Assembly: GCA_040376605.1 (NCBI GenBank)
Contig: JBEIQI010000001.1
Location: forward strand, 5,191-69,190
DNA from: Flavobacteriales bacterium
Lineage (GTDB): Bacteria; Bacteroidota; Bacteroidia; CAIKAF01
Direction: 5' to 3'
Length of the DNA stretch: 64,000 nucleotides
The notes under the pieces were generated by a model. It searched no databases, was not told the origin of the DNA, and worked only from the letters and a program-made list of their open reading frames with translations. Positions 7,244 to 53,737 of this stretch are shown here, piece by piece. The position numbers and the translations under genes are program-made. The stretch's first letter is position 1. Each line of letters starts with the position of its first letter.

Positions 7244-7260
7244 CTCAATTATTAATAAAA

Positions 7261-7632: not shown

Positions 7633-7635
7633 AGG

Positions 7636-8007: not shown

Positions 8008-8072
8008 GTTTGGTGATGTGGGTATTGAATAATTGTTGTATTTTTGAACACAACAAATTAGACTTTTTAATC

Positions 8073-9227
8073 ATGAAGAAACTTTATTTAGCACTTGTTT
8101 TATTTACAGGGTTATCTGTAGTTAATGCACAGCACCCAATAGAATCGGCACATAATACCAATGTTACTGTGCAACCTAAAAATACCAATCAGGATAGAGC
8201 TGTTGGTTATTATTTTGTAGACTACGAAGGATATGATGCTTCCTTAGGAACCTTAGAATCTGGAGTTTTATTTTTTAACCGTAGAAATCCAGTTTATTTT
8301 GGAACTTCTACATTAGGTATGGGTGAAGCCGCAGTGGTTTTTGATACCATGATTGTTACTCAGGATTATTCAGTTTTTGATATCTATCCTGGAAATGCAG
8401 TACAAAATTTTGATGTGGATACAGCTTATATCGTTTTACACCATCAAAACAATTCTGGTTTAGCAGATACTATTATTCTTTCTATTAAGAATGTAGCTGC
8501 TAACGGAACTCCTGGTACTACCGTTATGTGGGCTGATACCATTATTACTACTGTAGCTTTAACTAATCCTCCTACAGGAACAGGTTATCCAATTTCTCAA
8601 TATGCTTTCCCAATTGATATGGCACCTATCGCTGGTGGTAAATTTAGTTTATTTGTAAACTATTACGGTGCAGCGGTTGATACCTTTGGTTTAATTAGTT
8701 CTAACAATACCTCTGGTGCTCCTTGTGCTAATGCTGCTGCTGGAAATGAAGCCATTACTTCTGAAGTATTCCCTTCATCATTCTACAGATATTGGAATGC
8801 TACTACCTTAAGCACTGTTCAACCCAATAACGTAGGTAGCGGTGGATTGTATATCGATTGTAATGGTAATGCGGCGGCTGATTGGTTAACTGAGCAAGCA
8901 GTTCAAACATTCAGCATTTGGGTTTCTGGTACACTTACCGATAACTTAGGAGTTGATGAAGAAGCTGCTGGTGTTCAAGTTAATGCTTATCCAAACCCTG
9001 CTACCGATTTCACCACTATTCAATTTACTTTGGTGGATGACGCCAGTGTTTCTGTAAACATTACCGATCTTTCTGGTAAAGTGGTTTATAACAATATTCT
9101 TGGTAAGCGTGATGCTGGTAGCAACAATATTGTTGTTAACACATCTGAGTTTAGCAATGGCGTTTACATGTACACTGTTAATGTAAATAACAAAAAAGTT
9201 ACAAGAAGAATTATTGTAAATAAATAG
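8073..9227 (+). CDS. Secreted protein with type-A T9SS C-terminal sorting domain (Por_Secre_tail)
   Basis: Track ORF 8010-9227. A better start is the Met of MKKLYLALVLFTGLSVVNAQ (signal peptide). The C-terminal about 80 aa (VNAYPNPATDFTTIQFTL...ITDLSGKVVY...NGVYMYTVNVNNKKVTRRIIVNK) is a classic T9SS CTD. Confidence 0.7.
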   Translation: MKKLYLALVLFTGLSVVNAQHPIESAHNTNVTVQPKNTNQDRAVGYYFVDYEGYDASLGTLESGVLFFNRRNPVYFGTSTLGMGEAAVVFDTMIVTQDYSVFDIYPGNAVQNFDVDTAYIVLHHQNNSGLADTIILSIKNVAANGTPGTTVMWADTIITTVALTNPPTGTGYPISQYAFPIDMAPIAGGKFSLFVNYYGAAVDTFGLISSNNTSGAPCANAAAGNEAITSEVFPSSFYRYWNATTLSTVQPNNVGSGGLYIDCNGNAAADWLTEQAVQTFSIWVSGTLTDNLGVDEEAAGVQVNAYPNPATDFTTIQFTLVDDASVSVNITDLSGKVVYNNILGKRDAGSNNIVVNTSEFSNGVYMYTVNVNNKKVTRRIIVNK

Positions 9228-33115: not shown

Positions 33116-33258
33116 TAATTGATTTATAAAGAAGAGGTTAGAGACTGGCTCGTTGAACCTCTGGCAACCAACTATAAGCCCCGTTAATTCGGGTTGGAAA
33201 ACCGGTGCCAATTCCAGATTCTGCTACATATTGTATCAGAAGAATATAGATTGAGAAA
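33116..33258 (+). promoter_or_regulatory. SAM-I (S-box) riboswitch aptamer
   Basis: Contains the invariant SAM-I blocks ...AGAAGAGGTTAGAGACTGGCTCGTTGAACCTCTGGCAACC... (GGCAACC at 33163-33169) and GGTGCCAATTCC (33204-33215). P2 (GAGGTT/AACCTC), P3 and P4 hairpins can be drawn. It sits 5' of metY-metX-hom. Confidence 0.8.
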
Positions 33259-33507: not shown

Positions 33508-34902
<1,395 letters not shown>

Positions 34903-34950: not shown

Positions 34951-35970
34951 ATGTCAAACTTTCAAACATACCAAAACACCCAACCCTTTGCACTCGAAAG
35001 TGGCGAGGTACTTGGTGGGCTTAAAATAGCTTACCATACCTATGGTACCTTTGATGCACAAAAAAGCAAGGTGGTTTGGGTTTGCCATGCCCTCACAGCT
35101 AATTCCGATGTAGCAGATTGGTGGGAAGATATTTTTGGCAAAGGCAGTCACTTCGATAAAGAGGAATATTATATCATTTGCGCAAATATATTAGGATCAT
35201 GTTATGGATCTACAGGGCCATTGTCTGATAATGGCATTGGACGTCCTTATTTAAGAAGTTTTCCACTGGTAACCCCAAGGGACATGGCAAATGCTCATTT
35301 AATGCTGAAATCGCACCTGAAGATTCAAACCATTGATTTGTTAATTGGTTCATCTCTGGGAGGGCAGCAAGCTATGGAGCTTGCAATACAACTTAAGGAG
35401 GATTTGGATCAACTCATATTAATTGCTACTAATGCAAAACATTCACCCTATGGTATTGCCTTTAATGAATCCCAGCGTTTGGCATTATTAGCAGATGAAA
35501 GCTTTGAAAGACAGGAACCTAATGGTGGAGAAAAGGGCTTAATTGCTGCTAGAAGCATTGCGATGTTAAGTTATCGCTCCTATCACGGTTATCAAATTAC
35601 CCAATCAGAAGAAAGTAGCAATAAGCTGGATGATTTTAAGTCGTCTTCATATCAGAGGTATCAGGGTAAAAAATTGGCTAAAAGGTTTAATGCTTATTCA
35701 TATTGGGCACTTTTAAAATCTATGGATAGCCACCATGTAGGTCGGAACAAGGGATCAATAAAGGATGCTCTTGCAGAAATAACTGCTAGAACATTAGTGG
35801 TAGGGATCAGTAGCGATTTGCTTTTTCCAGTAGAGGAGCAAAAATATTTAGCCGAACATATTCTAAACGCCCAGCTGGAAGTAATGGATTCGAATTTTGG
35901 ACATGATGGGTTTTTAGCGGACGCCAAAGTACTTGAAACAATTATTATTGAATTTTTAAAAACTACATAA
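34951..35970 (+). CDS. metX: Homoserine O-acetyltransferase
   Basis: 339 aa alpha/beta hydrolase. FALESGEVLGGLKIAYHTYG...VVWVCHALTANSD...GSSLGGQQA (nucleophile Ser) ... DLLFP ... HDGFL is the MetX pattern. Confidence 0.85.
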   Translation: MSNFQTYQNTQPFALESGEVLGGLKIAYHTYGTFDAQKSKVVWVCHALTANSDVADWWEDIFGKGSHFDKEEYYIICANILGSCYGSTGPLSDNGIGRPYLRSFPLVTPRDMANAHLMLKSHLKIQTIDLLIGSSLGGQQAMELAIQLKEDLDQLILIATNAKHSPYGIAFNESQRLALLADESFERQEPNGGEKGLIAARSIAMLSYRSYHGYQITQSEESSNKLDDFKSSSYQRYQGKKLAKRFNAYSYWALLKSMDSHHVGRNKGSIKDALAEITARTLVVGISSDLLFPVEEQKYLAEHILNAQLEVMDSNFGHDGFLADAKVLETIIIEFLKTT

Positions 35971-35971
35971 A

Positions 35972-37219
35972 ATGAGAAAGAAATTATCGATTGGATTATT
36001 TGGATTTGGTTGTGTTGGAAATGGGTTATATGAAGTGTTGAATAAATCAGAGTTATTAGATGCAACGATCAAAAAAATAGTGGTTAAGAATCCTACCAAA
36101 GATAGAAAAATTAGTAAGGAGCATTTTTCATATGATAAAAATGATATTTTATTGGATGATGAAATTAACCTTGTTGTTGAATTGATTGATGATGCAAAAG
36201 CTGCATTTTTAATCGTTTCCGAGGCATTAAAAAGAAAGAAAAATGTAGTTACCGCCAATAAAAAAATGCTTGCTGAGAACCTTGAGGAACTTATTGGGCT
36301 GGCAAAGGAAAATAAGGTATCCTTATTATATGAAGCATCTGTGGGAGGCAGTATTCCTATAATCAGGAACTTGGAGGAATACTATAATAATGATTCTCTA
36401 TCAGGGGTGTTGGGAATTGTAAATGGAACCACGAATTATATTCTAACCCAAACCAATTATGGCAAGGACTATGATTCGGCATTGCAGGAAGCCCGTGAGT
36501 TAGGATTTGCGGAATCTGATCCTACCTTAGATGTTGACGGATTTGATTCGAAGTTTAAATTGATATTGCTCATTAAGCATGCTTTTGGATTAACCTTACA
36601 AGCCGAAGAGGTGTTTAATTATGGAATACGTCAAGTAAAAGAGCAGGATGTTAGGTATGCTTCGGAAAAGGGACTTCGCTTAAAATTATTTTCAAGGGCC
36701 GAAAAAGTGGGGAATCAATTAATAGGTTTTGTGGCGCCACACTTTATTGCGGAGGATAATGTCGCTTATAATGTAAATAACGAATTTAATGCAGTAACTG
36801 TAGAAGCATTATTTTCCGATAAACAATTGTTTTTGGGTAAAGGTGCAGGAGCCTATCCAACGGCAAGTGCTGTATTATCTGATATTTCAGCACTCCAATA
36901 TGATTATGCCTATGAGTATAAAAAATCACAGAAAGTGAATAATTTAACCTATACCACTGATTTTAAATTGAAAATCTATGCCGGATCATCTTCTATTGAA
37001 AAGTTAGAGGAGCTTCCTTGGATAGAAAAAGATGAAGTACTAAAAAGTAAAGACTACTGTTATATCACGGGAATTATAAACTTTGCCGACCTGTTTCTAA
37101 CGGATTTTAATGCCAGAAATGATTTTTTCTTCGCGGTTCTCCCTCATTCCATCAAGGACTTAAACAGTTCTGAAGCTCAATTATCATTTGCCGAATTACA
37201 AGAATCTATTAACTATTAA
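35972..37219 (+). CDS. hom: Homoserine dehydrogenase
   Basis: 415 aa. N-terminal GLFGFGCVGNG (NAD-binding), catalytic ...ANKKMLAENLEEL..., ...GTTNYIL..., ...GFAESDPTLDVDGFDSKFKL... are Hom hallmarks. Confidence 0.8.
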   Translation: MRKKLSIGLFGFGCVGNGLYEVLNKSELLDATIKKIVVKNPTKDRKISKEHFSYDKNDILLDDEINLVVELIDDAKAAFLIVSEALKRKKNVVTANKKMLAENLEELIGLAKENKVSLLYEASVGGSIPIIRNLEEYYNNDSLSGVLGIVNGTTNYILTQTNYGKDYDSALQEARELGFAESDPTLDVDGFDSKFKLILLIKHAFGLTLQAEEVFNYGIRQVKEQDVRYASEKGLRLKLFSRAEKVGNQLIGFVAPHFIAEDNVAYNVNNEFNAVTVEALFSDKQLFLGKGAGAYPTASAVLSDISALQYDYAYEYKKSQKVNNLTYTTDFKLKIYAGSSSIEKLEELPWIEKDEVLKSKDYCYITGIINFADLFLTDFNARNDFFFAVLPHSIKDLNSSEAQLSFAELQESINY

Positions 37220-38589: not shown

Positions 38590-39771
38590 ATGAGCAAAAA
38601 ATATTTAAAGAATGCCCATAAGGAAACTTTGGCCATTCGAACACATATTCTAAGAACTAATCAAAAGGAACATTCCAATCCATTGTTCCTTACCAGTAGT
38701 TTTACATTTGACACGGCCGAAGAAATGGCAGCTGTATTTGCTGATGAGATCCCAGGAAATATTTATTCACGATATTCAAACCCCAATGTTCAAGAGCTTA
38801 TAGATAAGGTGTGTTTATTAGAAAACGCAGAAAGCGGATGGGCTACTTCCTCCGGTATGGCTGCTGTATTTACTACATTTGGTGCATTATTAAAATCAGG
38901 GGATCATATCGTTTCGAGCCGATCTGTTTTTGGATCAACACATCGATTATTCACAGAAGTATTTCCTAAATGGGAGGTTTCTACGACATATGTGGATGCA
39001 TTAGATTATGAAGGATATAAAAATGCTATTCAACCAAATACCAAAATTTTATATTTAGAAACCCCTTCAAACCCGGCGTTAGAAATTATTGATATTAAAA
39101 CGGTGGCTAAAATTTGTAAGAAGGCAAAAATACTTTTCGTAGTGGATAATTGTTTTGCAACACCTATATTACAGCGACCGCTTGATTTAGGAGCAGATAT
39201 CTCCATTCATTCAACTACAAAATTTATGGATGGCCAAGGAAGAACGCTTGGTGGATTGATTTTATCAAACTCAAAAATTATCAAAGAAATTGAAGGATTT
39301 GCTCGCCATACCGGGCCGGCATTAAGCCCGTTTAATGCCTGGATCATTTCTAAGTCAATCGAAACTTTACATATACGTGTTGAAAGAATGACCGAAAATG
39401 CGTTGGTGATTGCAAAAAAATTAGAAAAGTATCCCAAAGTAAAATGGGTTAAATATCCATTTTTGCCAAGCCATCCTCATTACAAAACTGCGAAAAAGCA
39501 GATGTTTGGAGGAGGCTCTATTGTTACATTTGAAATAAAAGGTGGATTAAAAGCAGGCCGTCAATTTTTAAATAAACTTCAGCTATTTTCATTAACTCCC
39601 AATTTAGGGGATGCCAAAAGTATTGCTACCCATCCGGCATCTACGACCCATTCGAAATTAAAGCCGGAGGAGAGAAATGCCGTGGGTATTTCCGATGGTT
39701 TGGTTAGATTATCCATCGGTCTTGAACATTCTAATGATATTTGGAAAGATATTTTACAGGCCCTATCCTAA
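38590..39771 (+). CDS. PLP-dependent O-succinyl/acyl-homoserine sulfhydrylase or cystathionine gamma-synthase (MetZ/MetB-like)
   Basis: 393 aa. Cys/Met-metabolism PLP family (...YSRYSNPN..., ...HSTTKFMDGQG... PLP-Lys, ...RLSIGLEH...). Confidence 0.8.
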   Translation: MSKKYLKNAHKETLAIRTHILRTNQKEHSNPLFLTSSFTFDTAEEMAAVFADEIPGNIYSRYSNPNVQELIDKVCLLENAESGWATSSGMAAVFTTFGALLKSGDHIVSSRSVFGSTHRLFTEVFPKWEVSTTYVDALDYEGYKNAIQPNTKILYLETPSNPALEIIDIKTVAKICKKAKILFVVDNCFATPILQRPLDLGADISIHSTTKFMDGQGRTLGGLILSNSKIIKEIEGFARHTGPALSPFNAWIISKSIETLHIRVERMTENALVIAKKLEKYPKVKWVKYPFLPSHPHYKTAKKQMFGGGSIVTFEIKGGLKAGRQFLNKLQLFSLTPNLGDAKSIATHPASTTHSKLKPEERNAVGISDGLVRLSIGLEHSNDIWKDILQALS

Positions 39772-39807: not shown

Positions 39808-41064
39808 TTATGTTTTTTGTTCTTTCTTTTTAGCTGCAGGAAAAAGAACATTATTTAATATCAAACGATATCCTGATGAATTGGGATGCAGCGATAAATC
39901 TGTAGGTTCATCACCCACCCGATGCTGATAATCTTCCGGATCGTGTCCACCATAAAAAGTCCAGAAGCCTTTTCCAAAAGTTCCATGCATGTATCGAACT
40001 TCGTTAGCTTGTTTATTTTCTCCCAATATAACAACGTTAGATTTCAATAATTTTTTATTAAACGCAGTGGTTTGTCCAAGAAATCCTTTAATAACCGATT
40101 CATGATTTTGGGTTAACATGGTGGGCACTTCATCAGCTTTAGCAGAAAATTCAAACAATGTAAAAAAGTCGAATTTTTGCTGCATATTTCGGGTGGTGGT
40201 CATATCAATATTAGAATATTCGTATTCCGATGGATTCGTGCTAATGGTAAAATCTTTGAAAGCGAAACATTTGGTAAAATCTAGTTTAGCTTGTGATTGT
40301 TGATCCATCGGATCTCCGTCAAACGGGGTTTCACAAATATCGATACCTTCTGCGGCCAATGAAATATCATAACTGTCGGTTGCGCTACACATGGCAAATA
40401 AGTATCCACCTCCGGCTACATAATCACGTATTTTTTTTGCAACTCCTAATTTTAATTCGCTTACTTTATTAAATCCTAATTTTTTTGCCAGAATTTCTGA
40501 TGACCTCACTTGTTCTTGGTACCAACTGTCATTTTTATAGGCCGACCAAAACTTTCCATACTGACCTGTAAAGTCTTCATGATGCAAGTGTAACCAATTA
40601 TAGGTTGGCAACAGACCTCCAATAACTTCGGTATCGTAAATGGTGTCGTAAGGTATTTCTGAGTAGGTTAGTACCATGGTTACCGCATCATCCCAAGGTT
40701 GCATACCTGGAGGAGAATAAACGGCAATTTTGGGAGCCTTTTCCAACTTCATTGGATTTTGATTGACATCGGGGTCGGATAATTGTGAAATTAAATTGGT
40801 GCTTTGGCCGTCCGTTATTAACTCGTAAGAAACATTTCTGGCAAGCATTAAATCTTCATAAGTTGATCTGTATTTAAACATGAATGCGCCTCCACGATAA
40901 TTAAGCATCCAAAAAATCTCATCGTTTAATTCTAACACTCGATATGCAACTCCATATGCTTTCAAATGATCCGTTTGGCCATCATCCATTGGAATAAAAA
41001 CATAATTTGCCCTGGTACTTGTTATACTTAAAAATATAATCAGGGTAAAAGTTAATTTTTTCAT
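39808..41064 (-). CDS. Hypothetical secreted protein
   Basis: Track ORF starts at 41145. The likely start is MKKLTFTLIIFLSITSTRANYVF (signal peptide). No family recognised. Confidence 0.45.
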   Translation of the reverse strand: MKKLTFTLIIFLSITSTRANYVFIPMDDGQTDHLKAYGVAYRVLELNDEIFWMLNYRGGAFMFKYRSTYEDLMLARNVSYELITDGQSTNLISQLSDPDVNQNPMKLEKAPKIAVYSPPGMQPWDDAVTMVLTYSEIPYDTIYDTEVIGGLLPTYNWLHLHHEDFTGQYGKFWSAYKNDSWYQEQVRSSEILAKKLGFNKVSELKLGVAKKIRDYVAGGGYLFAMCSATDSYDISLAAEGIDICETPFDGDPMDQQSQAKLDFTKCFAFKDFTISTNPSEYEYSNIDMTTTRNMQQKFDFFTLFEFSAKADEVPTMLTQNHESVIKGFLGQTTAFNKKLLKSNVVILGENKQANEVRYMHGTFGKGFWTFYGGHDPEDYQHRVGDEPTDLSLHPNSSGYRLILNNVLFPAAKKKEQKT

Positions 41065-41316
41065 ACTTCGAATATACGGATAATGTATTGATTGGAGTAA
41101 ACGTGATTTACTCGGTTTTGTTATATGTTTAAATATAACTCTCAATATTTGTGCCTAATAGCTCTATTGACTGAAAGAAACAATGGGTTGTGCCTAAGCA
41201 GACCATATAGCTTTCTTTAAGGATTTTTGCAGAAATCTTTGTTTATCTAGTAAAAATAAATGCAGATAGGTTAAAATATAGAAGCAGAATAAGAGAAATA
41301 CAAATAACTAAAATGG

Positions 41317-43177: not shown

Positions 43178-43684
43178 ATGTACAAAGTATTAACAGAAAA
43201 TGGTGAATATAATATTGGATTTGCCTCCAATGACAATACCAAACCTTTGATTAATTCAGTTTACTCTGGATACACTATAAAAGGGAATTCCATGGATGGT
43301 TTTGAGATTGAGAAGGATGGAAAACTCTTTAAGGCAGATTTATTAAAAGTTGATTATAAGGAGAAAACTTTTTTGGTAAAAGTAGAAGGTAGAAGGATTA
43401 TGGTGAAGGCCCAGGATCGTTTTGATTTGTTATTGGCAAAGCTTGGGATGACCGAGTTAGCATCAAAAAAGATCAATCAGCTCAAGTCTCCCATGCCAGG
43501 ACTCATTTTGGAAGTTTTGGTAACTCCTGGCCAAAACATTAAGGCAGGAGAACCTTTAATTATTTTGGAGGCCATGAAAATGGAAAATATCATTAAGGCG
43601 CCTATAGATGTTGTAATAAAAAACGTAAAGGCCATTAAAGGAAGGCCGGTTGAAAAGAATGAGTTATTGATTGAATTCGAATAA
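43178..43684 (+). CDS. Biotin/lipoyl attachment domain protein (BCCP-like, AMKM biotinylation motif)
   Basis: 168 aa. The C-terminal about 70 aa (PMPGLILEVLVTPGQNIKAGEPLIILEAMKMENIIKAP...) is a canonical biotinyl domain. Confidence 0.65.
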   Translation: MYKVLTENGEYNIGFASNDNTKPLINSVYSGYTIKGNSMDGFEIEKDGKLFKADLLKVDYKEKTFLVKVEGRRIMVKAQDRFDLLLAKLGMTELASKKINQLKSPMPGLILEVLVTPGQNIKAGEPLIILEAMKMENIIKAPIDVVIKNVKAIKGRPVEKNELLIEFE

Positions 43685-44111
43685 AATTGCCATGAATGAA
43701 TCTGTTGAATTTTACAAACAATATATAGGTCAGCGAATCAACACGGCCCCATCTGCTTTTGGAAATTGGCTGAATGGAAAAATTTTAAAAGTAGAGGAGG
43801 ATAGTTTATCCATAGAGTTTGAGGTGCGGGATAATATGACCAACCCGGTAAAACTTCTTCATGGAGGAATGATGGCTGCCTTGATGGATGAAATAATAGG
43901 GATGACAATTTTTGTAAATGGAGAGAAAAACTTCTTTTACAGTATTAGCCTAAATGTTGATTTTATTAGCAACGTAAATGTGGGAGCCAATGTAGTGGTT
44001 ACCTCAAAGATCATCAAGAAAAGTGCAAGGTTGATTCAAGCGGAATGTTATATACATGGTCCCGAAAATAAATTGTTAGCAAAAGCTAGTTCAAATCTAA
44101 TTAGCAGTTAG
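43671..44111 (+). CDS. Hotdog-fold thioesterase, PaaI/4HBT (YbdB-like) family
   Basis: 146 aa. ...PVKLLHGGMMAALMDEIIGMT... is the PaaI-type catalytic motif. Confidence 0.65.
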   Translation: MNSNKIAMNESVEFYKQYIGQRINTAPSAFGNWLNGKILKVEEDSLSIEFEVRDNMTNPVKLLHGGMMAALMDEIIGMTIFVNGEKNFFYSISLNVDFISNVNVGANVVVTSKIIKKSARLIQAECYIHGPENKLLAKASSNLISS

Positions 44112-44122
44112 TTACAGGAACC

Positions 44123-44932
44123 CTATTCTCCGGCATTAATATATTCAAAACCGCTTCCGATTTGTTTCCATAAGACTGCAATTATTCGAATATTTCCCAG
44201 GTCCCATTCTGGTTTTCTAAAAATTCCCTGACGAATTTTAAAGGAAGTATTTTCATTTACCGGAAGGATGTTGACTTGCGCCCCAATTCCATTTGACGCA
44301 GTTGATCCTCGGAGGATATGTTGATGGTTATAATTACCCGCAACTCCTAATTGTGGTGATAAAATATTGTCTTCCACGATATATGCAGTGGTGAAATAAT
44401 TTGAATTGTCTGAAATAAAAAACTTACCATAAATGTTTACAATGATACTATCTGAAGTGGTTGAAAAATTAGCATTCACAGCCCCTTCTGAACTTTCGGC
44501 GGACTCCATGGTTAATGCCGTTAGGATGGCACTTTGGGTCAAAAGAGAAGATTGATTTCCTACACCAAAGTCCGGGAAACCCGCAACATTTAAGGCTGTC
44601 GCAATGTCAATGCCAGCAGGAGTAAAAAGGGTATCCGTGGCATTAGGATGAACCGTTATAAAATAATTATTTGATGGATTTGTTGCCTCCACCTGGTCTA
44701 ATAGATTCAAACCAAAAGTACCACAGGTATTATTTTCGGTATCAGAAAAGAAAAAACAAATAGTGTTTTTGGTTTGCGATGGATAATCACATGATCCATC
44801 ATTTACCTCTGCATTTGGATTGTAATTGGGAGAATTGGGATCTGTACATCCTTTTGTCTTATTATCGCAACTTACCATGGAAATAGTAAAGAATAATAAT
44901 AGACTGATGATAATGTATGATGGACGTATCAT
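44123..44932 (-). CDS. Hypothetical lipoprotein
   Basis: 269 aa. Signal plus lipobox (...ISMVSCDNK), Cys-rich N-terminal region, Asn/Ser-rich body. Overlaps the upstream gene by 4 nt. Confidence 0.45.
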   Translation of the reverse strand: MIRPSYIIISLLLFFTISMVSCDNKTKGCTDPNSPNYNPNAEVNDGSCDYPSQTKNTICFFFSDTENNTCGTFGLNLLDQVEATNPSNNYFITVHPNATDTLFTPAGIDIATALNVAGFPDFGVGNQSSLLTQSAILTALTMESAESSEGAVNANFSTTSDSIIVNIYGKFFISDNSNYFTTAYIVEDNILSPQLGVAGNYNHQHILRGSTASNGIGAQVNILPVNENTSFKIRQGIFRKPEWDLGNIRIIAVLWKQIGSGFEYINAGE

Positions 44933-46143
44933 TTAATAAGTTTAATTTTTCTGCTAATTTGGTCTTGTTCGTAAAATATAGTAACGAGAAACATAAATAT
45001 CCATTGCCCAAGGATACAACAATATATTCCTCCTACTAGGTCAAAACTCTTTAAAAAGAAACTGCATGATGCCAACATGGTTATGGCAGCACCTCCAGCA
45101 CATCGGGATAAAAGTCCGTGATTGTTTTTGTTATAGAAATAAATAACAATTGGAGTATACAGTGTTGAGGGAAATGCAAATAACAAACCGGCAGCCCAAA
45201 ATTCATAACCAATGTTTAACATAAAGAATTGAATGCAAATAAAGTAGGAAATGGAGATAGAAACAACATTCACTAACATTCCCAAAATCAATACTTTCAT
45301 GCGCAGTGAATTGTCCACTTTAATTTTGCTCTTCCTGTCTCTATTATGATAAAATTGTGTGATAAAATTTGGAAGGCTAATGGCAAATAACATAAAGTTC
45401 ATAAAAATTTGATAGGTCGCTTTTTCCGAATCATCAAATTGGGTATATACAAAGAACCGATCTACGGTAAGAATGAGAATAATTGAGAATGAATAAATAA
45501 AATAATTATAAGTAATGAGGTACATTTCTATGTTTATTGTACTCAGTTTACCTTTAATAAAAACTTTATAGTTAAGCAATAAATGAATAGCGCTTTTAGA
45601 AATCTCAGTGAGACCAATGGCAAAAATTAAATACATAAATGACATGTCGTCTAATCGTAAAAAGAAATAAGCAATTCCTACGGACATTCCGGTAATATTA
45701 GCAATAATTGGCTTCCAATCGTTTTTTTCGTAAACATATAATGTTTCGAAACTTTGATTGATAAACTTTCCTGTAAAGAGAAGCAAATAGGATACACAAA
45801 TGATGGGATTATAAGGAGATAAAGCGAGGAATATTAGAAAAATAATGAGCAGTGGCAGTCTGGAATAAAAGCTTTCAACAAAACTATCATATATTTTATT
45901 GGGGAAAGAGGAAAACCTTTTTTGTAAATATTGATTGGATCCCCAGGATAAAATAATGGATGCAATAGAGGCAAAAAACCAAACATCCACTGCCTTGCCC
46001 CATAATTCAATATTTACCATATAGATTGCCAACAAAGGCCATACCGGCTGAAAGATGGGTCCGGAGAATGATCGCAAGGCTTCCATGGCAATGGTTGTCG
46101 CCTTTTTAGGAGAAAGCAGGAATTTCTTCTGAATTAGTTCCAT
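44929..46143 (-). CDS. Polytopic membrane protein, putative MOP/Wzx-type flippase-like
   Basis: 404 aa, about 12 predicted TM helices. Composition and layout are typical of oligosaccharide-lipid flippases, but there is no diagnostic motif. Confidence 0.4.
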   Translation of the reverse strand: MELIQKKFLLSPKKATTIAMEALRSFSGPIFQPVWPLLAIYMVNIELWGKAVDVWFFASIASIILSWGSNQYLQKRFSSFPNKIYDSFVESFYSRLPLLIIFLIFLALSPYNPIICVSYLLLFTGKFINQSFETLYVYEKNDWKPIIANITGMSVGIAYFFLRLDDMSFMYLIFAIGLTEISKSAIHLLLNYKVFIKGKLSTINIEMYLITYNYFIYSFSIILILTVDRFFVYTQFDDSEKATYQIFMNFMLFAISLPNFITQFYHNRDRKSKIKVDNSLRMKVLILGMLVNVVSISISYFICIQFFMLNIGYEFWAAGLLFAFPSTLYTPIVIYFYNKNNHGLLSRCAGGAAITMLASCSFFLKSFDLVGGIYCCILGQWIFMFLVTIFYEQDQISRKIKLIK

Positions 46144-46239
46144 TCAAGATGCAAATTACAAAATATACCTATTGCTTTAACATTACACTCGCACTATTTT
46201 AGGGGTAAACGCTTGTTTTTTATACTTGATAAGGACGGT

Positions 46240-46914
46240 TTAATTAACTTTTAACTCGTATTCCCAAATGAAATTTTTTTCCAACCATGTGTTTCGCGTA
46301 TAAACTAGTTGAGGTTGAAAGCTTTCAATTTCGGCCATTTTATTAATTAAAGTAATGTTGCAGTCATCTGAAAGTACAAGAATTAATTTGCCTTTGATTG
46401 CCAGATATTTTTTTGAATCTCGAAAAAGAAGTTGAAAATAGTTGAGATCTTGTCCGGCGTACCAAGCATGTTCTTCGAGATTGGAAGGATTCTTTGGGAA
46501 ATATGGGGGGTTATTAATGATTAATTCGAAATTCTTCTCTTTAATTTTCTCGAATAAATTAGATTGAACTATTTGCACCATAACATCATTTAAAAGGCAA
46601 TTCGATGAAGTAGTGGACACCGCAACTGGATTGATATCGCAGGCAAATGTGATTGCTTTTTCTTTGGCTGCAAAGATGCATATTGCCCCTGATCCGCATC
46701 CTATTTCCAATACTTTCTTACCTGTCAATGATTGAGTTTTTAGGTATCTGCACATGGTTCTGGTACTAAAAAACAGAGACGGATGAAATATGCCTGGCGG
46801 AATAGATAATTTAAGGCCCATAAATTGAGCCTTCCGTTCTTTTCTGAGGTAAGATTTTGTGACCGGAACTAACCAAGGTTGAATTAACCTTTTAAATATT
46901 TTTTTCCGACTCAT
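46240..46914 (-). CDS. Class I SAM-dependent methyltransferase with NPPY motif (HemK/RsmC-like small-domain MTase)
   Basis: 224 aa. LEIGCGSGAI (motif I) and IINNPPYF (motif IV typical of N-directed MTases). Confidence 0.65.
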   Translation of the reverse strand: MSRKKIFKRLIQPWLVPVTKSYLRKERKAQFMGLKLSIPPGIFHPSLFFSTRTMCRYLKTQSLTGKKVLEIGCGSGAICIFAAKEKAITFACDINPVAVSTTSSNCLLNDVMVQIVQSNLFEKIKEKNFELIINNPPYFPKNPSNLEEHAWYAGQDLNYFQLLFRDSKKYLAIKGKLILVLSDDCNITLINKMAEIESFQPQLVYTRNTWLEKNFIWEYELKVN

Positions 46915-46919
46915 AAATA

Positions 46920-48422
46920 TTAAAATCCTTCAATTTCGGGTTGTCGGTATTTCCATACTTTTTGAAGTACTTTTATTTCATAAGGCATTTGATATGCACT
47001 AAACTTATATCTGGGAGCAGAAATTAACTTGATGGACTTTCTTTTCCATTTATCTAACCTTATATCCGAAACCGTCGGGTAGTAGCCATTTAATACAGTT
47101 TCGAAATTCTTAATCTTATCAATCATATATGGCTTCAGCCATGGGGTAAGTGGGTTTTTCCTTAAATCGAAATTCTCCCAGGTATCATTTATCCAATCCT
47201 CTAATTTATCAGGAAATGTAAAACCACTGGCCTTTACTTGTTCGTATAAATCTGACCCTTCTGTAGGAACCGGACTATATACATAAATGATAATTTCGGT
47301 ATTGGGGTTAATGGATTTGATTTCTTTAATGAATTTGATGTCCTCATCAATTTGTTTATTCACCTGCTTCTCATCGCCCACCGGTATACCGAGTACAAAG
47401 GACATTTCCGGTATTATATCGAACTTTGCCATTCTTTCCGCAAATTTTTTTATTTGAGCCCCAGTTTGTGTACCCCCTTTATCCATCTGTTTTAGGATCT
47501 CATCATTGCCAGTTTCAGCTCCTAGGAATATCATTTTGCAACCGGCTTCACGCATGATTTTAAGACTTTCGTCTTTGTATTTGTCAATGGTGTCGATGCG
47601 GCCTTCGCCCCACCAAATTATTTCCTCCTTTTTTATTAATTCAGAGAATTCAACCGTTCTTTTTTCGGAAACGAAAAAATTGTTGTCAACAAATTCAATC
47701 GCATTCCCCCCATATTGAGTTTTTAAAAATTTAATATCATTATAAATATTGATTGCCGATTTCCCTTTCCAGCGAGCATTATAGATAGGAACTACAGCAC
47801 AGAAGGAGCATGTAAATGGGCATCCAAAGCTGCTATGATAAGCAATGGTTTTACTCCCTAAATATGTTTTACCCAAGTATTTCTTTATAGGGTAAAAAAT
47901 ATTCAATTTCTCATATGGAAATGGGGGCAAACTGTCCTGATCATAAATTCCATCTTTTTTAGTAAAGTGAAGATCTCCATTTTTCTCAAAAATTAAATTG
48001 GAGATATCGCTAAAATCCTTTACACCCACCGAAATTTTCTGAAGTAATTGCGGAAAACATTCGTCACCGGGACCATTTACAATAAAATCAACATATCCTG
48101 ATTTTAAAACTGATTTGGGCTGGTTAGATGGAAAATATCCACCCCAAACTGTGGTAATTTGAGGGTAGGATTCTTTTATTTTTTTGGTGATTGGAATGGC
48201 TTGTTTTAACTGAGGGCCAGGCATTACTGTTGACCCAAAACAAAAAACATCTTTCGTTTCGAGATATTCAAAAATCTTCTTTTCCGGCTCCCTTTCTATA
48301 TTGCCGTCAACGATATAGTATTCAAAGAGTCCTTCGATACTTGCGGCTATTTGAAGAATAGAATTGGGTATTCTTGGCTTTGACGAGCTACTTCTTGGGT
48401 TAAATAGGATTACTCCAGCCAT
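46920..48422 (-). CDS. B12-binding-domain radical SAM protein
   Basis: 500 aa. N-terminal Rossmann-like cobalamin-binding-type domain, then the radical SAM cluster motif CPFTCSFC (CxxxCxxC) with a downstream glycine-rich SAM site. Confidence 0.7.
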   Translation of the reverse strand: MAGVILFNPRSSSSKPRIPNSILQIAASIEGLFEYYIVDGNIEREPEKKIFEYLETKDVFCFGSTVMPGPQLKQAIPITKKIKESYPQITTVWGGYFPSNQPKSVLKSGYVDFIVNGPGDECFPQLLQKISVGVKDFSDISNLIFEKNGDLHFTKKDGIYDQDSLPPFPYEKLNIFYPIKKYLGKTYLGSKTIAYHSSFGCPFTCSFCAVVPIYNARWKGKSAINIYNDIKFLKTQYGGNAIEFVDNNFFVSEKRTVEFSELIKKEEIIWWGEGRIDTIDKYKDESLKIMREAGCKMIFLGAETGNDEILKQMDKGGTQTGAQIKKFAERMAKFDIIPEMSFVLGIPVGDEKQVNKQIDEDIKFIKEIKSINPNTEIIIYVYSPVPTEGSDLYEQVKASGFTFPDKLEDWINDTWENFDLRKNPLTPWLKPYMIDKIKNFETVLNGYYPTVSDIRLDKWKRKSIKLISAPRYKFSAYQMPYEIKVLQKVWKYRQPEIEGF

Positions 48423-48517
48423 GTAAGCATTGGTTTTGGGTAAATATACAAAGATTTTGGCCGGTTAAGGTAGTTTGGTTTACAGCTGTTAGGTAACCAT
48501 TGACACCTAAGAACGAT

Positions 48518-49012
48518 TTAAGTGTCTTTTACTTGATGAGGACGAACCGAAGGTTCATTTAATTTTTTCCTGATACTGTTTGATCTTCTTCTTAATAGCA
48601 TTGAAATAATAATTGATATAGCTGTTGCCCCCAAAACCAAACTAATAAGCGGCTTATGATAAATCCACACCATGGATAGACAGACCATCGTTATGATTAT
48701 ACCTAGTAGAAAGGAAGAAAGTAAAATACCATTTCTTATTTCCTGGTAAGTGAGGGGAATTTTACTCATAAATAGTTTAATAGCCGATAAGATTTGATAA
48801 AAACAACAACTGATAAATAGGAATCCCACTATTCGAATAGACCAATACAACCAATTGTAGTTATTATCATTAAATAAAGGAGTTTGATTAACAGCATGAT
48901 ATTCATTCCATAACAACAAGATGGGTCCGACAGGTAATAAAATGATCCCTCCAATTATCTTTAGAAGATATTTTTTGATCCTCCTCCCACCTGGAATATA
49001 GCTTAAGCTCAT
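48518..49012 (-). CDS. Hypothetical small membrane protein (4 TM)
   Basis: 164 aa hydrophobic ORF, first gene of the minus-strand cluster. Confidence 0.35.
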   Translation of the reverse strand: MSLSYIPGGRRIKKYLLKIIGGIILLPVGPILLLWNEYHAVNQTPLFNDNNYNWLYWSIRIVGFLFISCCFYQILSAIKLFMSKIPLTYQEIRNGILLSSFLLGIIITMVCLSMVWIYHKPLISLVLGATAISIIISMLLRRRSNSIRKKLNEPSVRPHQVKDT

Positions 49013-49166: not shown

Positions 49167-49628
49167 ATGCACAAATTATTCATTTTGCCTTTTATCTTAC
49201 TTTCAGTTCTATCTTTAAATGTTACTGCCCAATCAGGTATTGGTAATAATTCTGTTTCTGTAGCAACCAATACCAACGGTGATATTAGTTGGAACGCCAA
49301 TGTGGATGGGCATAACAGAAGAGGTTATATCGATTCTAAAAACTCCAAAGAAGAATGTAATTCGAAGGTTGCTGATGAAGATATTTTAACCCCAACCACC
49401 ATTAGTTTATATGGGAATAGTTTTACTGATGTGTTATTCTTTTCTGGTAATGGCATGGATTTACATACCATTACAATTTTGGATGAAGAGGGAAAAGTTT
49501 TGGTATCAGATCAATATACAAATTATCATTCTATTGATGTTTCCAATTTTGCAAGTGGCACTTATTTGATTGAAATTAATAGAGGGATAAATCGGAAGTC
49601 TTATAGCAAGAAGTTTATCAAAGAATAA
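49167..49628 (+). CDS. Small secreted protein with type-A T9SS C-terminal sorting domain
   Basis: 153 aa. Signal MHKLFILPFILLSVLSLNVTAQ. C-terminus ...ITILDEEGKVLVSDQY...DVSNFASGTYLIEINRGINRKSYSKKFIKE is a Por_Secre_tail. Confidence 0.6.
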   Translation: MHKLFILPFILLSVLSLNVTAQSGIGNNSVSVATNTNGDISWNANVDGHNRRGYIDSKNSKEECNSKVADEDILTPTTISLYGNSFTDVLFFSGNGMDLHTITILDEEGKVLVSDQYTNYHSIDVSNFASGTYLIEINRGINRKSYSKKFIKE

Positions 49629-49670: not shown

Positions 49671-50957
49671 CTATCGATTGATTAAAGAATTGATGTACTG
49701 CACGCCTAGTAATTTATGAGTAATATCACCGGGTCGTCTTAAATAAACCATAATTGTATAATCATTTTCTGTTTCGGCATAGCTGCCTTCAATTAGGGTA
49801 ATATCTCCATTTCCTGTCTTGGGATCTTTTACGGTATACATATAATTATAATACCCTTGTTTAAAAGGTATTGCTAACCAAAATAAATCACGGTAATTGT
49901 CATAATTCATTTTATAGGTGTCTAACATTTGTCCAAAAGTAAATCCGCCTAAAAGGTAAATCTCTTTTCCCCGATAAGACTCATCGTTGGGTAAGGTAAA
50001 ATATAAAGTAGCATAGTCAGGGTCGATGGTTGTGCTGAACCCATCCTGGTTATAAACGGTATATCTGCCATTAATATCTGGTCGGTTTTGATAATTACGA
50101 AAATTTCGGAGTACTTCATTTCGTAAACGGATATGATATTTGCCTTGCTCTATTTTAATATCTACGATGGGTTCATTGATAATTTGTAATGTTTTAATAT
50201 CAATAAACCGATATTGGTTTCCTGCGGCAAACGAACATTCACCATTGGTATAATTATATTTAACCTCCTTGGTGTTGATGTATTGAGGACTTAGTCCAAT
50301 GATCGCATTATCCCATCGATTGTTCTGAGTGATGTTTACTTTAAAATCGTTGATATAATCCTGAACGTAAATATTCTCAGTATTAATGGTAAAATATAAT
50401 TCCTGATGGGTGTTTCGTAGATCTACCCCACTGGCATACCTAATCTTGGCCTCAGGAAAACTAACCACCGACTCTACAACCATAAACCTTCTGGTAAAAA
50501 CAATTTTTTCTGGATCATTGGTATCAAACACCTTCATAATAAAATTCCCCGAAATGGTAGGCTTCATGAACTCATTTGGAAAGGTAAATTGGTAATGAGT
50601 ATAGGGCTGTGTTACGTTTTGCGAAAAATGAGATTCAATTACATTATACGATTCAAATCCTTGCATATATTGCATATGTAATAGATCGGAAACAGACCAA
50701 TCTGGATTGCAATGAATTACCTGATAACTATAATATTTTAGATCATTATCCCAATCGTCGAATTGAAAAATAAGTTTCTGCGAACTATTCAATTCAATGA
50801 TGTTGTTGGTTTGATCGGAACCAGTTTTATAAACCTCAGGAAAATGAATATTGGATTGGTAAATATAATCCGGGAAAAGGATTGTTTGAGATTTTAATGG
50901 AATGTAACTAACTAAAACTCCTATGGCAAATACGATTCCTTGTTTGATTCGATTCAT
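49671..50957 (-). CDS. Hypothetical secreted beta-rich protein adjacent to a T9SS type-B cargo gene (possibly T9SS-associated)
   Basis: 428 aa, signal peptide. Does not show the PorP/SprF N-terminal motif. Family not resolved by eye. Confidence 0.4.
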   Translation of the reverse strand: MNRIKQGIVFAIGVLVSYIPLKSQTILFPDYIYQSNIHFPEVYKTGSDQTNNIIELNSSQKLIFQFDDWDNDLKYYSYQVIHCNPDWSVSDLLHMQYMQGFESYNVIESHFSQNVTQPYTHYQFTFPNEFMKPTISGNFIMKVFDTNDPEKIVFTRRFMVVESVVSFPEAKIRYASGVDLRNTHQELYFTINTENIYVQDYINDFKVNITQNNRWDNAIIGLSPQYINTKEVKYNYTNGECSFAAGNQYRFIDIKTLQIINEPIVDIKIEQGKYHIRLRNEVLRNFRNYQNRPDINGRYTVYNQDGFSTTIDPDYATLYFTLPNDESYRGKEIYLLGGFTFGQMLDTYKMNYDNYRDLFWLAIPFKQGYYNYMYTVKDPKTGNGDITLIEGSYAETENDYTIMVYLRRPGDITHKLLGVQYINSLINR

Positions 50958-51050: not shown

Positions 51051-53618
51051 TTAACGTAACAAATTAACCATCCCTCTGAGGCTTATTTCCTGACCATTTG
51101 CCATAACAATGTAAATGTCGTAAACATATACATCAACAGGGGCAGGAATTCCATCAAATGTACCATCCCACCCAATGTTTTTATCGTTAGAAAAGAAAAT
51201 AGCTTGACCCCAACGATTATGAATTCTCATTTCGAATGATTGAACATTTCCCACGTGTATCATGAAATTTTGGTTCAACTCATCAAAATTGGGTGAAAAG
51301 GAATTGGGCACAAATACATTACAATCTACTTCAACAGTAATTGAATAAAATTCAGTACAGCCTCTATCATCGGTTACCGCCGCTGTATAGGTGGTAGATT
51401 TGCTGGGTGATGCAGCTGGATCTTCACATGTTGAGCAGTCAAGTGTAGTGCCATTGTCCCAGGCGAAGCTATAATTCCCTGATCCGCCAGTAACGTCAAT
51501 TGCTAAGGGGGAAGTGTCACCACAATACATAAAATATTCGGTAACTCCGGCGATATTGATTTTTGTAGGTTCAATAATGGTTAATTGTACAGGCAGAACA
51601 CAGTTATTATTGTCTGTAACGGTATAATTATAAACTCCTGCAGGCATATTAGTAAGTTGTGGCCCCATGCTATATACAAAAGGTGCTACCCCGCCAGAGA
51701 CGTTGAGCGAAACGGCCCCATCTATTTCCCCAAAACAAGAAATATTTGTACTAGTAGAAAGGTCTGTAAGCAATGCAGGTTCGGATAAGGTAATGTCAAG
51801 AACTTCTTGTTGCCCTGCCGCATCCGTTATGGTAACTTGATAACTTCCGGCAATTAGTTGAGTTGCTAAATTGGAAATTAACCCAGGATCATGCGACCAG
51901 CTATAGCTATAAGGTGCGCAGCCTGCTGAAGTTTGAATGGTAATTTCCCCATCACTTAATCCGAAGCAGCTGATATCAAAACCATTATAATCAGAGGTGG
52001 TATAGCTATTAATCATTGGAGCCGGTAAAACATCCACAGTAAATTGACAAGTTGTTGTATTGCCCACAATGTCTTCTGCTATTAAATCTACGAGCTGCTG
52101 ACCAACATCGGCACAACTAAAGATAGATTGACTGATGGTAATTGTATTGATGCCACAGTTGTCGGTACTTCCATTATCCGCCTGCGCAGCGGTAATGGAG
52201 CCATCTCCATTGGCATCAAGCTGTAATTGTAAATTCTGACAAAGAGCCGTTGGGTTAATGGTATCTGCCAATGTTAACGTAAAGCTAAAAGTGGAATCGA
52301 AGTTACTAACCTGACCATCATTAATGGTGATGGTAATTAATGAGCTACCAACGGCACCCCCAATTGGAGTTAAAGTGATATCACGATTAGCTCCAACTCC
52401 GCCAAAAACAATATTGGCTGCTGGAATCACAGCAGGGTTCGATGAAGTGGCCGATAAGGTTAGAACACCTGCTGCCTGTTGATTATCTGCTACATCAAAA
52501 AGAATATTGAGAGGGGAGGTATTTGGACAAACAATAGTATCTGAAGGTGGATTTACAATGTATGGTGGGGTATTGATAATGATACCATTGGCCCTGATAG
52601 CAAAATTATAAGGGTTTGGAGGACTGCATGATGAGTAAGCATCCGAATTGGGAATATTAATAGTTCCATTTATGATGCCTGTTACCCCTGGGGCAAATTG
52701 AATATCAAAGGGGACAGAGCCTCCCGGTGGAATGATATTAGTTGCGGGTTGATTTAAAACACTAAATCCAACTCCTGTAACTGTAATATAAGGAACACCC
52801 GTTAAGGTAAGTGGGGATTCTCCAATATTGTGGATATAAAAAGTTTTTGTTGACGAAAATCCAACGCCAACATTCCCAAAATCAGTATTGTCTGCGACAA
52901 TCGGAGTAACATCGTTATCTGGAATAATAAGAGCATTGCCCTGAACCTGTGGTTGAGCAATACTAACTATTTTAATATCATCAACGGCCCAACCCCTGTC
53001 TGCAACCGCCTCATCCGAATGAAATGTATATCTTAACTGAAAGGTCGGTACGTTATCAAATGCCGAAATATTGGCGATTACCTTGGTCCAGGTTGTTTTA
53101 GGATTAAACCAGGCTGGTGTATTATTATAATAAAAGGGGGTAGAAGATCCATTTTGAGACATGTTACCATCGTATGGAATGCACATTTGAGCTGCGGTAA
53201 TTTTGGTCCAGGTTACTCCATTGTGCGACCATTCTATAAAGCCCCCATCCCAATTTCCGGTTTCCGAACGCATTTGCATCCAAAATTCAAGTCTGCAATT
53301 GTCATAACCAGTTAAGTCGATTACCGGAGAAACCAAACGATAGACAATATAATTTCCGGCTCCTGCCTGGGCATAATTATTATTTCCATTTACATAAAAG
53401 CACCCTCCGCCACCTCCGGTATGATCCGTGGCCGGCACAACGGGCACCACTGCCAGCCAATTATATCCAGCAACATTGGCAGGAAATAGTCTTCCGGTAT
53501 TGGTCCATCCTCCTAAAGCATTACAATTATCATAAAATACAGTAGTTTGGGCATGGCTCCTGCCTACCATAAATAACGTAGAAGCAACGAAGAGTATCGG
53601 AAAAAATTTACTTGGTTT
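51051..53618 (-). CDS. Large cell-surface adhesin-like protein with type-B T9SS C-terminal domain (CHU_C / gliding-motility-associated CTD), HYR and SprB-type repeats
   Basis: Track ORF 51051-53690. The likely start is MKPSKFFPILFVASTLFMVGRSHAQTT. C-terminus CNVFVPNSFSPNFDELNQNF...WDGTFDGIPAPVDVYVYDI is the T9SS type-B sorting domain. Internal ...NGDGSITAAQADNGSTDNCGI... is HYR-like. N-terminal MAM/lectin-like region. Confidence 0.7.
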   Translation of the reverse strand, partial: KPSKFFPILFVASTLFMVGRSHAQTTVFYDNCNALGGWTNTGRLFPANVAGYNWLAVVPVVPATDHTGGGGGCFYVNGNNNYAQAGAGNYIVYRLVSPVIDLTGYDNCRLEFWMQMRSETGNWDGGFIEWSHNGVTWTKITAAQMCIPYDGNMSQNGSSTPFYYNNTPAWFNPKTTWTKVIANISAFDNVPTFQLRYTFHSDEAVADRGWAVDDIKIVSIAQPQVQGNALIIPDNDVTPIVADNTDFGNVGVGFSSTKTFYIHNIGESPLTLTGVPYITVTGVGFSVLNQPATNIIPPGGSVPFDIQFAPGVTGIINGTINIPNSDAYSSCSPPNPYNFAIRANGIIINTPPYIVNPPSDTIVCPNTSPLNILFDVADNQQAAGVLTLSATSSNPAVIPAANIVFGGVGANRDITLTPIGGAVGSSLITITINDGQVSNFDSTFSFTLTLADTINPTALCQNLQLQLDANGDGSITAAQADNGSTDNCGINTITISQSIFSCADVGQQLVDLIAEDIVGNTTTCQFTVDVLPAPMINSYTTSDYNGFDISCFGLSDGEITIQTSAGCAPYSYSWSHDPGLISNLATQLIAGSYQVTITDAAGQQEVLDITLSEPALLTDLSTSTNISCFGEIDGAVSLNVSGGVAPFVYSMGPQLTNMPAGVYNYTVTDNNNCVLPVQLTIIEPTKINIAGVTEYFMYCGDTSPLAIDVTGGSGNYSFAWDNGTTLDCSTCEDPAASPSKSTTYTAAVTDDRGCTEFYSITVEVDCNVFVPNSFSPNFDELNQNFMIHVGNVQSFEMRIHNRWGQAIFFSNDKNIGWDGTFDGIPAPVDVYVYDIYIVMANGQEISLRGMVNLLR

Positions 53619-53737
53619 CATAACTGTTAAGCCAAAAGTAATAAAACTTATATGAAAAGAGGACAATTTGCTCAAATTAGCTTCAGCCATGGATTATTGC
53701 AAACAATAAAATAGATAACTTTACGTATTATACCGTT

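Follow-up and report, generated by a model that had tools for sequence, protein, structure and literature searches.

What does a vitamin B12-binding radical S-adenosylmethionine (SAM) enzyme do when its gene is closely followed by those of a methyltransferase with an NPPY motif and of a flippase-like membrane protein? This question is raised by positions 44,123 to 49,012 of the 64,000-nucleotide stretch of Flavobacteriales DNA analysed here (contig JBEIQI010000001.1; the whole stretch is called the window), where a preliminary description made from the sequence alone had seen one five-gene unit for the tailoring and export of a cell-envelope lipid or glycan. Our results indicate that three of the five genes, those of the radical SAM enzyme (rSAM-A), the methyltransferase and a 404-aa membrane protein (TM404), form a recurring and undescribed module that in related Bacteroidota is embedded in surface-polysaccharide clusters, a setting that points to unusual radical chemistry on sugars of the envelope.

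All five open reading frames (ORFs) were found on the minus strand exactly where they had been placed, and so were both of the short spacings pointed out before, a 5-nt gap between rSAM-A and the methyltransferase (46915-46919) and a 4-nt overlap between TM404 and a lipoprotein gene (44929-44932); the remaining two gaps in the cluster are 95 and 96 nt. ORF calls in the analysed loci were mechanical. In comparison with three relatives, the ratio of nonsynonymous to synonymous change (pN/pS) was 0.15 to 0.49 for all five genes, with synonymous sites saturated, and because of this purifying selection all five are taken as real genes, rSAM-A and TM404 being the most constrained (0.15 to 0.20). The GC content is uniform across the region (approximately 0.34 to 0.37) and gives no hint of a genomic island. 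An Rfam scan of the region found no riboswitch, for cobalamin or otherwise, and no RNA element near the cluster. A sigma-70 promoter scan, with a model ill-suited to Bacteroidota promoters, gave 17 sites compared to 27.9 in shuffled sequence, and operon boundaries were not drawn from it.

The three proteins and the conserved gene pair

At the core of the module is rSAM-A (46920-48422, minus strand, 500 aa), which in the Pfam scan matched the B12-binding domain PF02310 at its N terminus (43.1 bits; cut-off, 32.1) and the radical SAM domain PF04055 (49.8 bits). The three cysteines of its CxxxCxxC motif (C201, C205 and C208, within CPFTCSFC) are invariant among 27 homologues. Both class B features that can be looked for in a sequence, this motif and an N-terminal Rossmann-type B12-binding domain, are thus present, and rSAM-A has a B12-domain radical SAM fold but belongs to an uncharacterised family. 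No curated NCBIfam equivalog cut-off is reached by rSAM-A: the best models were HpnJ (TIGR03471; 117 bits against a cut-off of 577.6) and BchE (TIGR02026; 108.9 against 481.35), with ApyD (93 bits), rSAM_ocin_1 (73.5 bits) and PhpK below them. Searches of the PDB with the single sequence and with a profile gave AprD4 as the best match (E value of 4e-9), followed by TokK, MgmA and CysS at about 1e-5, and the identity to class B enzymes with solved structures is only 12 to 17%. These scores, all far below the cut-offs, and the remoteness of the PDB matches place the enzyme outside any characterised family, in line with the preliminary description, which could assign the combination to no described pathway, and we found nothing in the literature on this family or on its combination with the methyltransferase and the flippase. 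The JGI name of rSAM-A, "anaerobic Mg-protoporphyrin IX monomethyl ester cyclase," was rejected as an over-annotation in view of its BchE score.

The methyltransferase (46240-46914, minus strand, 224 aa, NNPPYF) matched PF05175 (MTS) with 68.1 bits in the Pfam scan, and it stayed below the cut-off of every NCBIfam model that it resembled: PRK14968.1-3 (96.6 bits; cut-off, 162), HemK2/MTQ2 (73.4; cut-off, 87) and PrmC (TIGR03534, 72.7; cut-off, 199.1). The match to the PrmC model covers profile positions 51 to 214 of 253, and with this start at position 51 and a length of 224 aa, the N-terminal domain of PrmC seems to be absent, which suggests that the protein lacks the release-factor-binding part. 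The JGI name "release factor glutamine methyltransferase" is therefore unjustified on both the score and the seemingly missing domain. The NPP[YF] and GxGxG motifs (N135-P-P-Y138 and G72/G74/G76) are conserved in 44/44 members of the family, and the closest solved structures in a PDB search were RsmC, MJ0882, HemK and N6AMT1.

TM404 (44929-46143, minus strand) is predicted to be a divergent flippase of the Wzx type in the MOP superfamily. PF01943 was matched by just 1 of 13 homologues (E value of 1e-3), while a profile built from these 13 found Polysacc_synt and Polysacc_synt_3 proteins (PF01943/PF13440) with E values from 7.6e-9 to 5.5e-5. The alignment of the profile with one of them (P0337) by hhalign had a probability of 95.8% and an E value of 6.9e-9 over 352 columns; the alignment with a single Wzx from another locus (L052) was not significant (probability, 0.2%). 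The three Polysacc_synt proteins matched are 489 to 493 aa long, compared to 404 aa for TM404, and the close family of TM404 is small, with 19 clusters at ≥71% identity among 5.8 billion proteins. The term "flippase-like" in the preliminary description finds its support at the level of profiles, and the 12 transmembrane segments given there are an approximation, as about 12 long helices are seen in a low-confidence model whose fold is not usable.

The conservation of the pair of rSAM-A and the methyltransferase was examined in a genome scan with six exact query peptides and one genome per species, which favours close relatives and returned 50 loci, nearly all from Bacteroidota metagenome-assembled genomes (MAGs) along with two Aquimarina records and one Flavobacteriaceae isolate. 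Across these loci, and across orders, rSAM-A is 62 to 79% identical to the protein of the window, and an MTS methyltransferase comes after it in 50/50 loci, at a distance of no more than about 170 nt in 47. This partner diverges fast, with only 29 to 54% identity in the same loci. The pair is also present in two additional loci (L053 and L054), and in another (L056) a 42%-identical homologue of rSAM-A closes a tandem row of four B12 radical SAM genes, again with an MTS methyltransferase behind it. The adjacency noted before is thus strongly conserved among Bacteroidota relatives. Of the module, rSAM-A is the core and most conserved component and the methyltransferase its conserved partner, and in the lineage of the window, the arrangement persists over a range of 71 to 100% identity. 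Three of the contigs (L002, L026 and L030) have Bacteroidota-type gene content and an rSAM-A of 65 to 79% identity but are labelled Competibacteraceae, Bifidobacteriaceae and Akkermansia; they are probably mis-binned or mislabelled MAGs.

Glycan loci of the relatives and the surroundings in the window

To describe the neighbourhoods, the ORFs of all loci were clustered, and the five proteins of the cluster as well as representatives of about 35 neighbour families were scanned with Pfam and NCBIfam; neither rSAM-A, the methyltransferase and TM404 nor the families c2, c7 and c8 matched an equivalog. Large glycan loci surround the pair in most relatives, with at least eight different gene orders. 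A typical block consists of rSAM-A, the MTS methyltransferase, a 311-aa protein, a second B12 radical SAM protein of 482 aa with a class I methyltransferase after it, and a third B12 radical SAM protein of about 435 aa. It is flanked variously by genes for glycosyltransferases (GTs) of the GT-C fold (GT87-like or PMT_2), GT2, GT4, Wzy_C, Wzz and EpsG and by others for polysaccharide deacetylase, GNAT, Acyl_transf_3, FkbM methyltransferases, SPASM radical SAM proteins and homologues of TM404. One type of gene order has a GT87-like GT-C, GT4 and FkbM with the pair, another has GT2, GT4, Wzy_C, Wzz and polysaccharide deacetylase (an Aquimarina locus carries GT4 and the deacetylase), and further types have PMT_2 GT-C with GNAT and EpsG or have Acyl_transf_3. 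Homologues of TM404 lie ≤8 kb from rSAM-A in 20/51 loci and in several gene orders, and when two proteins of the flippase family from the profile search (P0333 and P0334) were looked up in turn, both were found in clusters with GT87, Wzy, Wzz, rSAM-A and the methyltransferase. More distantly, a 39%-identical homologue of rSAM-A lies in a locus with Wzx, Wzy, Wzz, GT4 and Bac_transf; a 43%-identical homologue is not in such a glycan locus. The Wzy, Wzz, GT2, GT4, GT-C, deacetylase and acyltransferase genes of the relatives corroborate the envelope-glycan context, while the gene context gives no support to the "lipid" half of the "lipid or glycan" originally proposed.

Up to three or four tandem paralogs of B12 radical SAM proteins are found in related loci (L004 to L050, e.g., L005 7989-14673, and L056 377-6959). 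In the large clusters, the second paralog (482 aa) has behind it a class I methyltransferase of its own, whose best NCBIfam model is the corrinoid-protein-associated CpaM (49 bits, below the cut-off), and this order repeats the pattern of a radical SAM gene and then a methyltransferase. The 311-aa protein of the block (family c2) comes directly after the methyltransferase in 38 loci (L005 10165-11100 and 37 others) and is absent in the window. It has a marginal match to NTP_transf_2, a nucleotidyltransferase fold (23 bits), and no NCBIfam match, and it might be a LicD/fukutin-like phosphotransferase.

Of the 150 best representatives from clustering at 50%, four proteins have domain fusions; they are about 30% identical to rSAM-A and clearly nearer to it than to the paralogs B and C. 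Two of them (P0188, at L062 1340-3502 after a GT2 gene, and P0193) join a B12 radical SAM protein to a class I methyltransferase, one (P0235) consists of a methyltransferase fragment, GT4 and a B12 radical SAM part, and the fourth (P0293, L061 8001-10178, on 3 contigs) joins a B12 radical SAM protein to Bac_transf. Bac_transf is the polyprenyl-phosphate sugar-1-phosphate transferase that primes glycan assembly, and besides a sugar-nucleotide pathway of the heptose type, the locus of P0293 carries GT2, GT4, methyltransferases, a further B12 radical SAM gene and Wzy. The Bac_transf fusion points to polyprenyl-phosphate-linked glycan assembly.

The two outer genes of the cluster behave differently from the pair. 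The 164-aa protein with four transmembrane segments (48518-49012, minus strand) matches TMEM43 (PF07787) with 35.3 bits, covering only the C-terminal third of the profile, and homologues upstream of rSAM-A were found only in the lineage of the window (L001 to L003 and L053) and are absent in the other 47 loci. The corresponding 161-aa gene of L054 is without a Pfam match and was not compared with the TMEM43-like protein; in this locus, an ABC-2 type transporter (ATPase and permease, 7257-8949) is inserted between the small upstream membrane gene and rSAM-A. At the other end, the 269-aa predicted outer membrane lipoprotein (44123-44932, minus strand) has a signal peptide and a lipobox cysteine (Cys22), as read from the sequence, and stays below the cut-offs of Omp28 (PF11551, 32.9 bits; cut-off, 34.9) and NF033782 (25.3; cut-off, 150), although its homologue in L053 carries a precomputed Omp28 match. 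It is a distant relative of Omp28 only, and the "Cys-rich" of the preliminary description is overstated, with 5 cysteines in 269 aa, all in the first 70 residues and one of them that of the lipobox. Translational coupling of this gene to TM404 through their 4-nt overlap is possible. The Omp28-like gene was also found only in the lineage of the window, where genes for a thioesterase, a biotin carboxyl carrier protein, DnaB and a plug and a cargo protein of the type IX secretion system (T9SS) are syntenic alongside the TMEM43-like and Omp28-like genes. Since adjoining housekeeping and T9SS genes are equally syntenic, the synteny of the two outer genes is uninformative about function, and the reading of all five genes as one unit is not supported. 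The TMEM43-like and Omp28-like genes are probably lineage-specific envelope neighbours.

Farther out, a SAM (S-box) riboswitch (33121-33252, plus strand; 57 bits against a gathering threshold of 44.4) lies upstream of a methionine biosynthesis operon with a Cys/Met pyridoxal phosphate (PLP) enzyme (33559-34902), an alpha/beta hydrolase (34951-35970; probably homoserine O-acetyltransferase), homoserine dehydrogenase (35972-37219) and, at 38590-39771, another Cys/Met PLP enzyme. Beside dnaB, a 445-aa ORF without a Pfam match (39808-41145, minus strand) is 83% identical and syntenic in L002. The genes of a biotin-carboxyl-carrier-like protein (168 aa) and of a hotdog thioesterase (146 aa) overlap by 14 nt at 43178-44111 on the plus strand, and the thioesterase gene is convergent with the cluster, the stops at 44111 and 44123 leaving 11 nt into which no terminator-like hairpin fits. 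Directly upstream of the cluster are three T9SS genes, encoding a 153-aa cargo protein with a Por_Secre_tail domain (49167-49628, plus strand), the T9SS plug protein (49671-50957, minus strand; NF052315, 346 bits) and an 879-aa protein (51051-53690, minus strand) whose homologue in L053 has SprB and CHU_C domains. T9SS-tailed proteins also flank radical SAM clusters in other lineages, the likeness being confined to the C-terminal sorting and CHU_C domains.

Proposed function and competing explanations

We think it probable, with considerable room for doubt, that the region is a reduced three-gene version of a Bacteroidota module for the tailoring and flipping of envelope glycans. According to this model, rSAM-A would act in the cytoplasm and perform radical chemistry on a sugar that is either nucleotide activated or linked to polyprenyl phosphate, most likely the methylation of an unactivated carbon with the help of cobalamin. 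The NPPY methyltransferase, translationally coupled to it, would then add a second methyl group, most likely to a nitrogen (amino or amide) in the same residue, TM404 would move the lipid-linked product to the periplasmic face, and a transferase encoded elsewhere would attach it to lipopolysaccharide (LPS), polysaccharide or glycoprotein. The sequences themselves show the gene families, the conserved pair, its recurrent link to the flippase family and to loci with Wzy, Wzz and glycosyltransferases, and the domain fusions to methyltransferases and to a priming sugar transferase; we infer the substrate, the chemistry of each enzyme, the use of cobalamin and the order of the steps. Within the glycan model, C-methylation is favoured because the majority of characterised B12-domain radical SAM enzymes are methylases, and we regard it as plausible but tentative. 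The main alternative for rSAM-A is a contraction of the sugar ring, a reaction suggested for HpnJ and Cds with lipid-linked sugars as substrates (PMC13459092). It would be compatible with HpnJ being the top curated model and with the Aquimarina locus, where a glycosyltransferase and a deacetylase lie upstream as in HpnI/HpnK/HpnJ.

Several observations weigh against the glycan model or against parts of it. Many of the 50 loci are from related MAGs, and their counts are non-independent; in one locus (L055), the sole exception to the pairing, a 71%-identical rSAM-A has no adjoining methyltransferase. TM404 has no direct match in Pfam or NCBIfam, and its AlphaFold2 model, made from a shallow alignment of 16 sequences of 71 to 99% identity, failed (pLDDT of 48.6). 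A tblastn search with the glycosyltransferases, priming transferase, Wzy and Wzz of the relatives found nothing in the 64-kb window, and the flanks scanned (about 30 to 62 kb) are of a housekeeping nature, with methionine biosynthesis, glutamine synthetase, DnaB and ATP synthase. Regarding the chemistry, the methylation of an unactivated carbon suggested in the preliminary description keeps the status of a proposal, as HpnJ and BchE, the two top curated models, are non-methylases. Neither the sequence nor fold searches with the model of rSAM-A separate methylases from non-methylases, and AprD4, a diol dehydratase, fits about as well as the methylases do. Finally, NPPY methyltransferases typically modify proteins or nucleic acids and not sugars (HemK, RsmC and the N6-adenine methyltransferases).

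A rival reading is that the pair modifies protein or RNA, by C-methylation and N5-methylation of glutamine (compare MgmA and HemK) or by modification of a nucleoside, the glycan genes being mere neighbours. The methyltransferase is indeed nearest to HemK/PrmC, Mtq2/N6AMT1 and RsmC, its N terminus as read from the sequence is basic, rSAM-A is unusually conserved across orders, and the top Foldseek match of the rSAM-A model is MgmA, the glutamine C-methylase of methyl-coenzyme M reductase. However, MgmA fits no better than TsrM, OxsB, CysS and AprD4, the methyltransferase is under all equivalog cut-offs and apparently lacks PrmC's N-terminal domain, no candidate substrate gene is conserved beside the pair, and this reading, which we consider quite improbable, would not explain the links to the flippase, to the glycosyltransferase and Wzy genes and to the Bac_transf fusion. 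The empty surroundings in the window could instead mean that its copy, having lost the glycosyltransferase, Wzy and paralog genes, is a remnant that is inactive or serves another purpose, and that the three genes left would have ceased to modify a glycan. Within 64 kb, nothing else of the large clusters is present in the lineage of the window, and the module sits amid housekeeping genes; yet rSAM-A and TM404 are the very genes under the strongest constraint, with synonymous sites saturated, all catalytic motifs are intact, the arrangement has been retained throughout the lineage, and the missing partners could be elsewhere in the genome, so we consider a remnant improbable.

A membrane lipid as the substrate, for example by modification of a polyprenol, of the headgroup of a hopanoid-like lipid or glycolipid or of an acyl chain, with the MOP protein translocating the lipid, is in our view unlikely, even though the modification of lipids is a prominent role of B12 radical SAM enzymes, with HpnP/HpnR, Tes, Grs and Cds as precedents (PMC13459092). 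HpnJ and Cds act on the sugar headgroups of lipids, in keeping with the glycosyltransferase and deacetylase context, the top curated model of rSAM-A is the hopanoid-associated HpnJ, and the paralog rSAM-B scores 112 bits on a "lipid biosynthesis B12/radical SAM" model. These scores are, however, far below the cut-offs, the recurrent partners are Wzy, Wzz, GT2, GT4 and GT-C, the Bac_transf fusion points instead to polyprenyl-phosphate-linked glycans, and no gene of fatty acid or lipid synthesis was found in the conserved neighbourhoods, where isoprenoid, squalene-hopene cyclase and hpn models were not specifically searched. We find it extremely improbable that the pair tailors a peptide made on the ribosome and modified after translation (RiPP) or a small molecule exported by a MOP/MATE-like transporter, a reading to which the weak matches of rSAM-A to ApyD and rSAM_ocin_1 and the SPASM radical SAM genes of some related clusters would lend themselves. 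When the intergenic ORFs of 20 to 89 aa in 51 loci were clustered, none was shared beyond 7 closely related loci and none adjoined the pair, which agrees with the earlier argument against a RiPP from the lack of a precursor peptide; moreover, the gaps in the cluster of the window are merely 5, 95 and 96 nt, and there is no protease, leader recognition or cyclase gene, the neighbours being those of glycan assembly. Rather doubtful is the idea that in many Bacteroidota a dedicated battery of radical SAM enzymes, up to three or four of the B12 type per locus and sometimes also some of the SPASM type, builds multiply C-alkylated or carbocyclic sugars for surface glycans, with rSAM-A and the NPPY methyltransferase as an obligate two-component enzyme in which the methyltransferase might load a methyl group onto the cobalamin of its partner or act on the radical-generated product. 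It draws on the pair being almost never separated, on the domains being sometimes fused and on the second paralog being likewise trailed by a class I methyltransferase, and if it were true, the sugars would be of a class so far undescribed for glycans assembled by Wzx/Wzy.

If the glycan model is correct and the pair acts on lipid- or nucleotide-linked sugars, this would be a new way in which Bacteroidota make C-methylated or rearranged sugars for their surface glycans, and part of the bacterial demand for cobalamin would be tied to the construction of the envelope. The three-gene version in the window would then be the simplest genetic handle on this chemistry, and the misleading automatic names "BchE cyclase" and "release factor glutamine methyltransferase" on thousands of metagenomic proteins could be corrected.

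Comparison with known systems

B12-dependent radical SAM enzymes have been described for antibiotics, cofactors, lipids and RiPPs, and we found no literature on such enzymes in envelope glycan assembly of the Wzx/Wzy type. The class B enzymes with solved structures (CysS, TsrM, TokK, MgmA and OxsB) as well as AprD4 share the N-terminal B12 domain and the CxxxCxxC barrel with rSAM-A. In contrast to this common architecture, the sequences are 12 to 17% identical, with PDB E values no better than 4e-9, and a C-terminal helical region of about 100 residues in rSAM-A has no assigned counterpart in them. To our knowledge, none of these six enzymes has an NPPY methyltransferase as its partner or belongs to a glycan locus of the Wzx/Wzy type.

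The resemblance to HpnJ and Cds lies in HpnJ being the best-scoring curated model and in the GT4 and polysaccharide deacetylase of the Aquimarina locus, as HpnJ too has a glycosyltransferase and a deacetylase acting before it (PMC13459092). The score of 117 bits compared to the required 577.6 sets rSAM-A apart from HpnJ, as do its conserved neighbours, which are those of glycan assembly, and the HpnH, HpnJ and HpnR models had no match at their cut-offs among the proteins scanned. The carrier in the rSAM-A system is probably polyprenyl phosphate and not a hopanoid or tetraether. Similarly, the methyltransferase has the class I fold, GxGxG and NPPY in common with HemK/PrmC, Mtq2/N6AMT1 and RsmC, but unlike them it is below the cut-offs and is coupled to a B12 radical SAM gene (50/50 loci). 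TM404 is like the Wzx/PST flippases (Polysacc_synt, MOP) in its profile homology over 352 columns, the approximately 12 helices of its low-confidence model and the presence of its family in Wzy, Wzz and glycosyltransferase loci, and it differs from them in the lack of a direct Pfam match for itself and 12/13 homologues, in its shorter length and in its very small close family.

The Arn and Gtr systems, in which a sugar is modified on undecaprenyl phosphate, flipped and transferred by a GT-C enzyme, offer a functional analogy with the loci of the relatives, which also combine GT2, an enzyme of the polysaccharide deacetylase family, a flippase, a GT-C (GT87-like or PMT_2) and tailoring enzymes. 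In contrast to Arn and Gtr, the tailoring here would be done by radical SAM enzymes and methyltransferases, and the partner genes are not in the window. In conclusion, glycan tailoring, B12 radical SAM enzymes, NPPY methyltransferases and Wzx flippases are each familiar on their own, while their combination in one module is both recurrent and undescribed.

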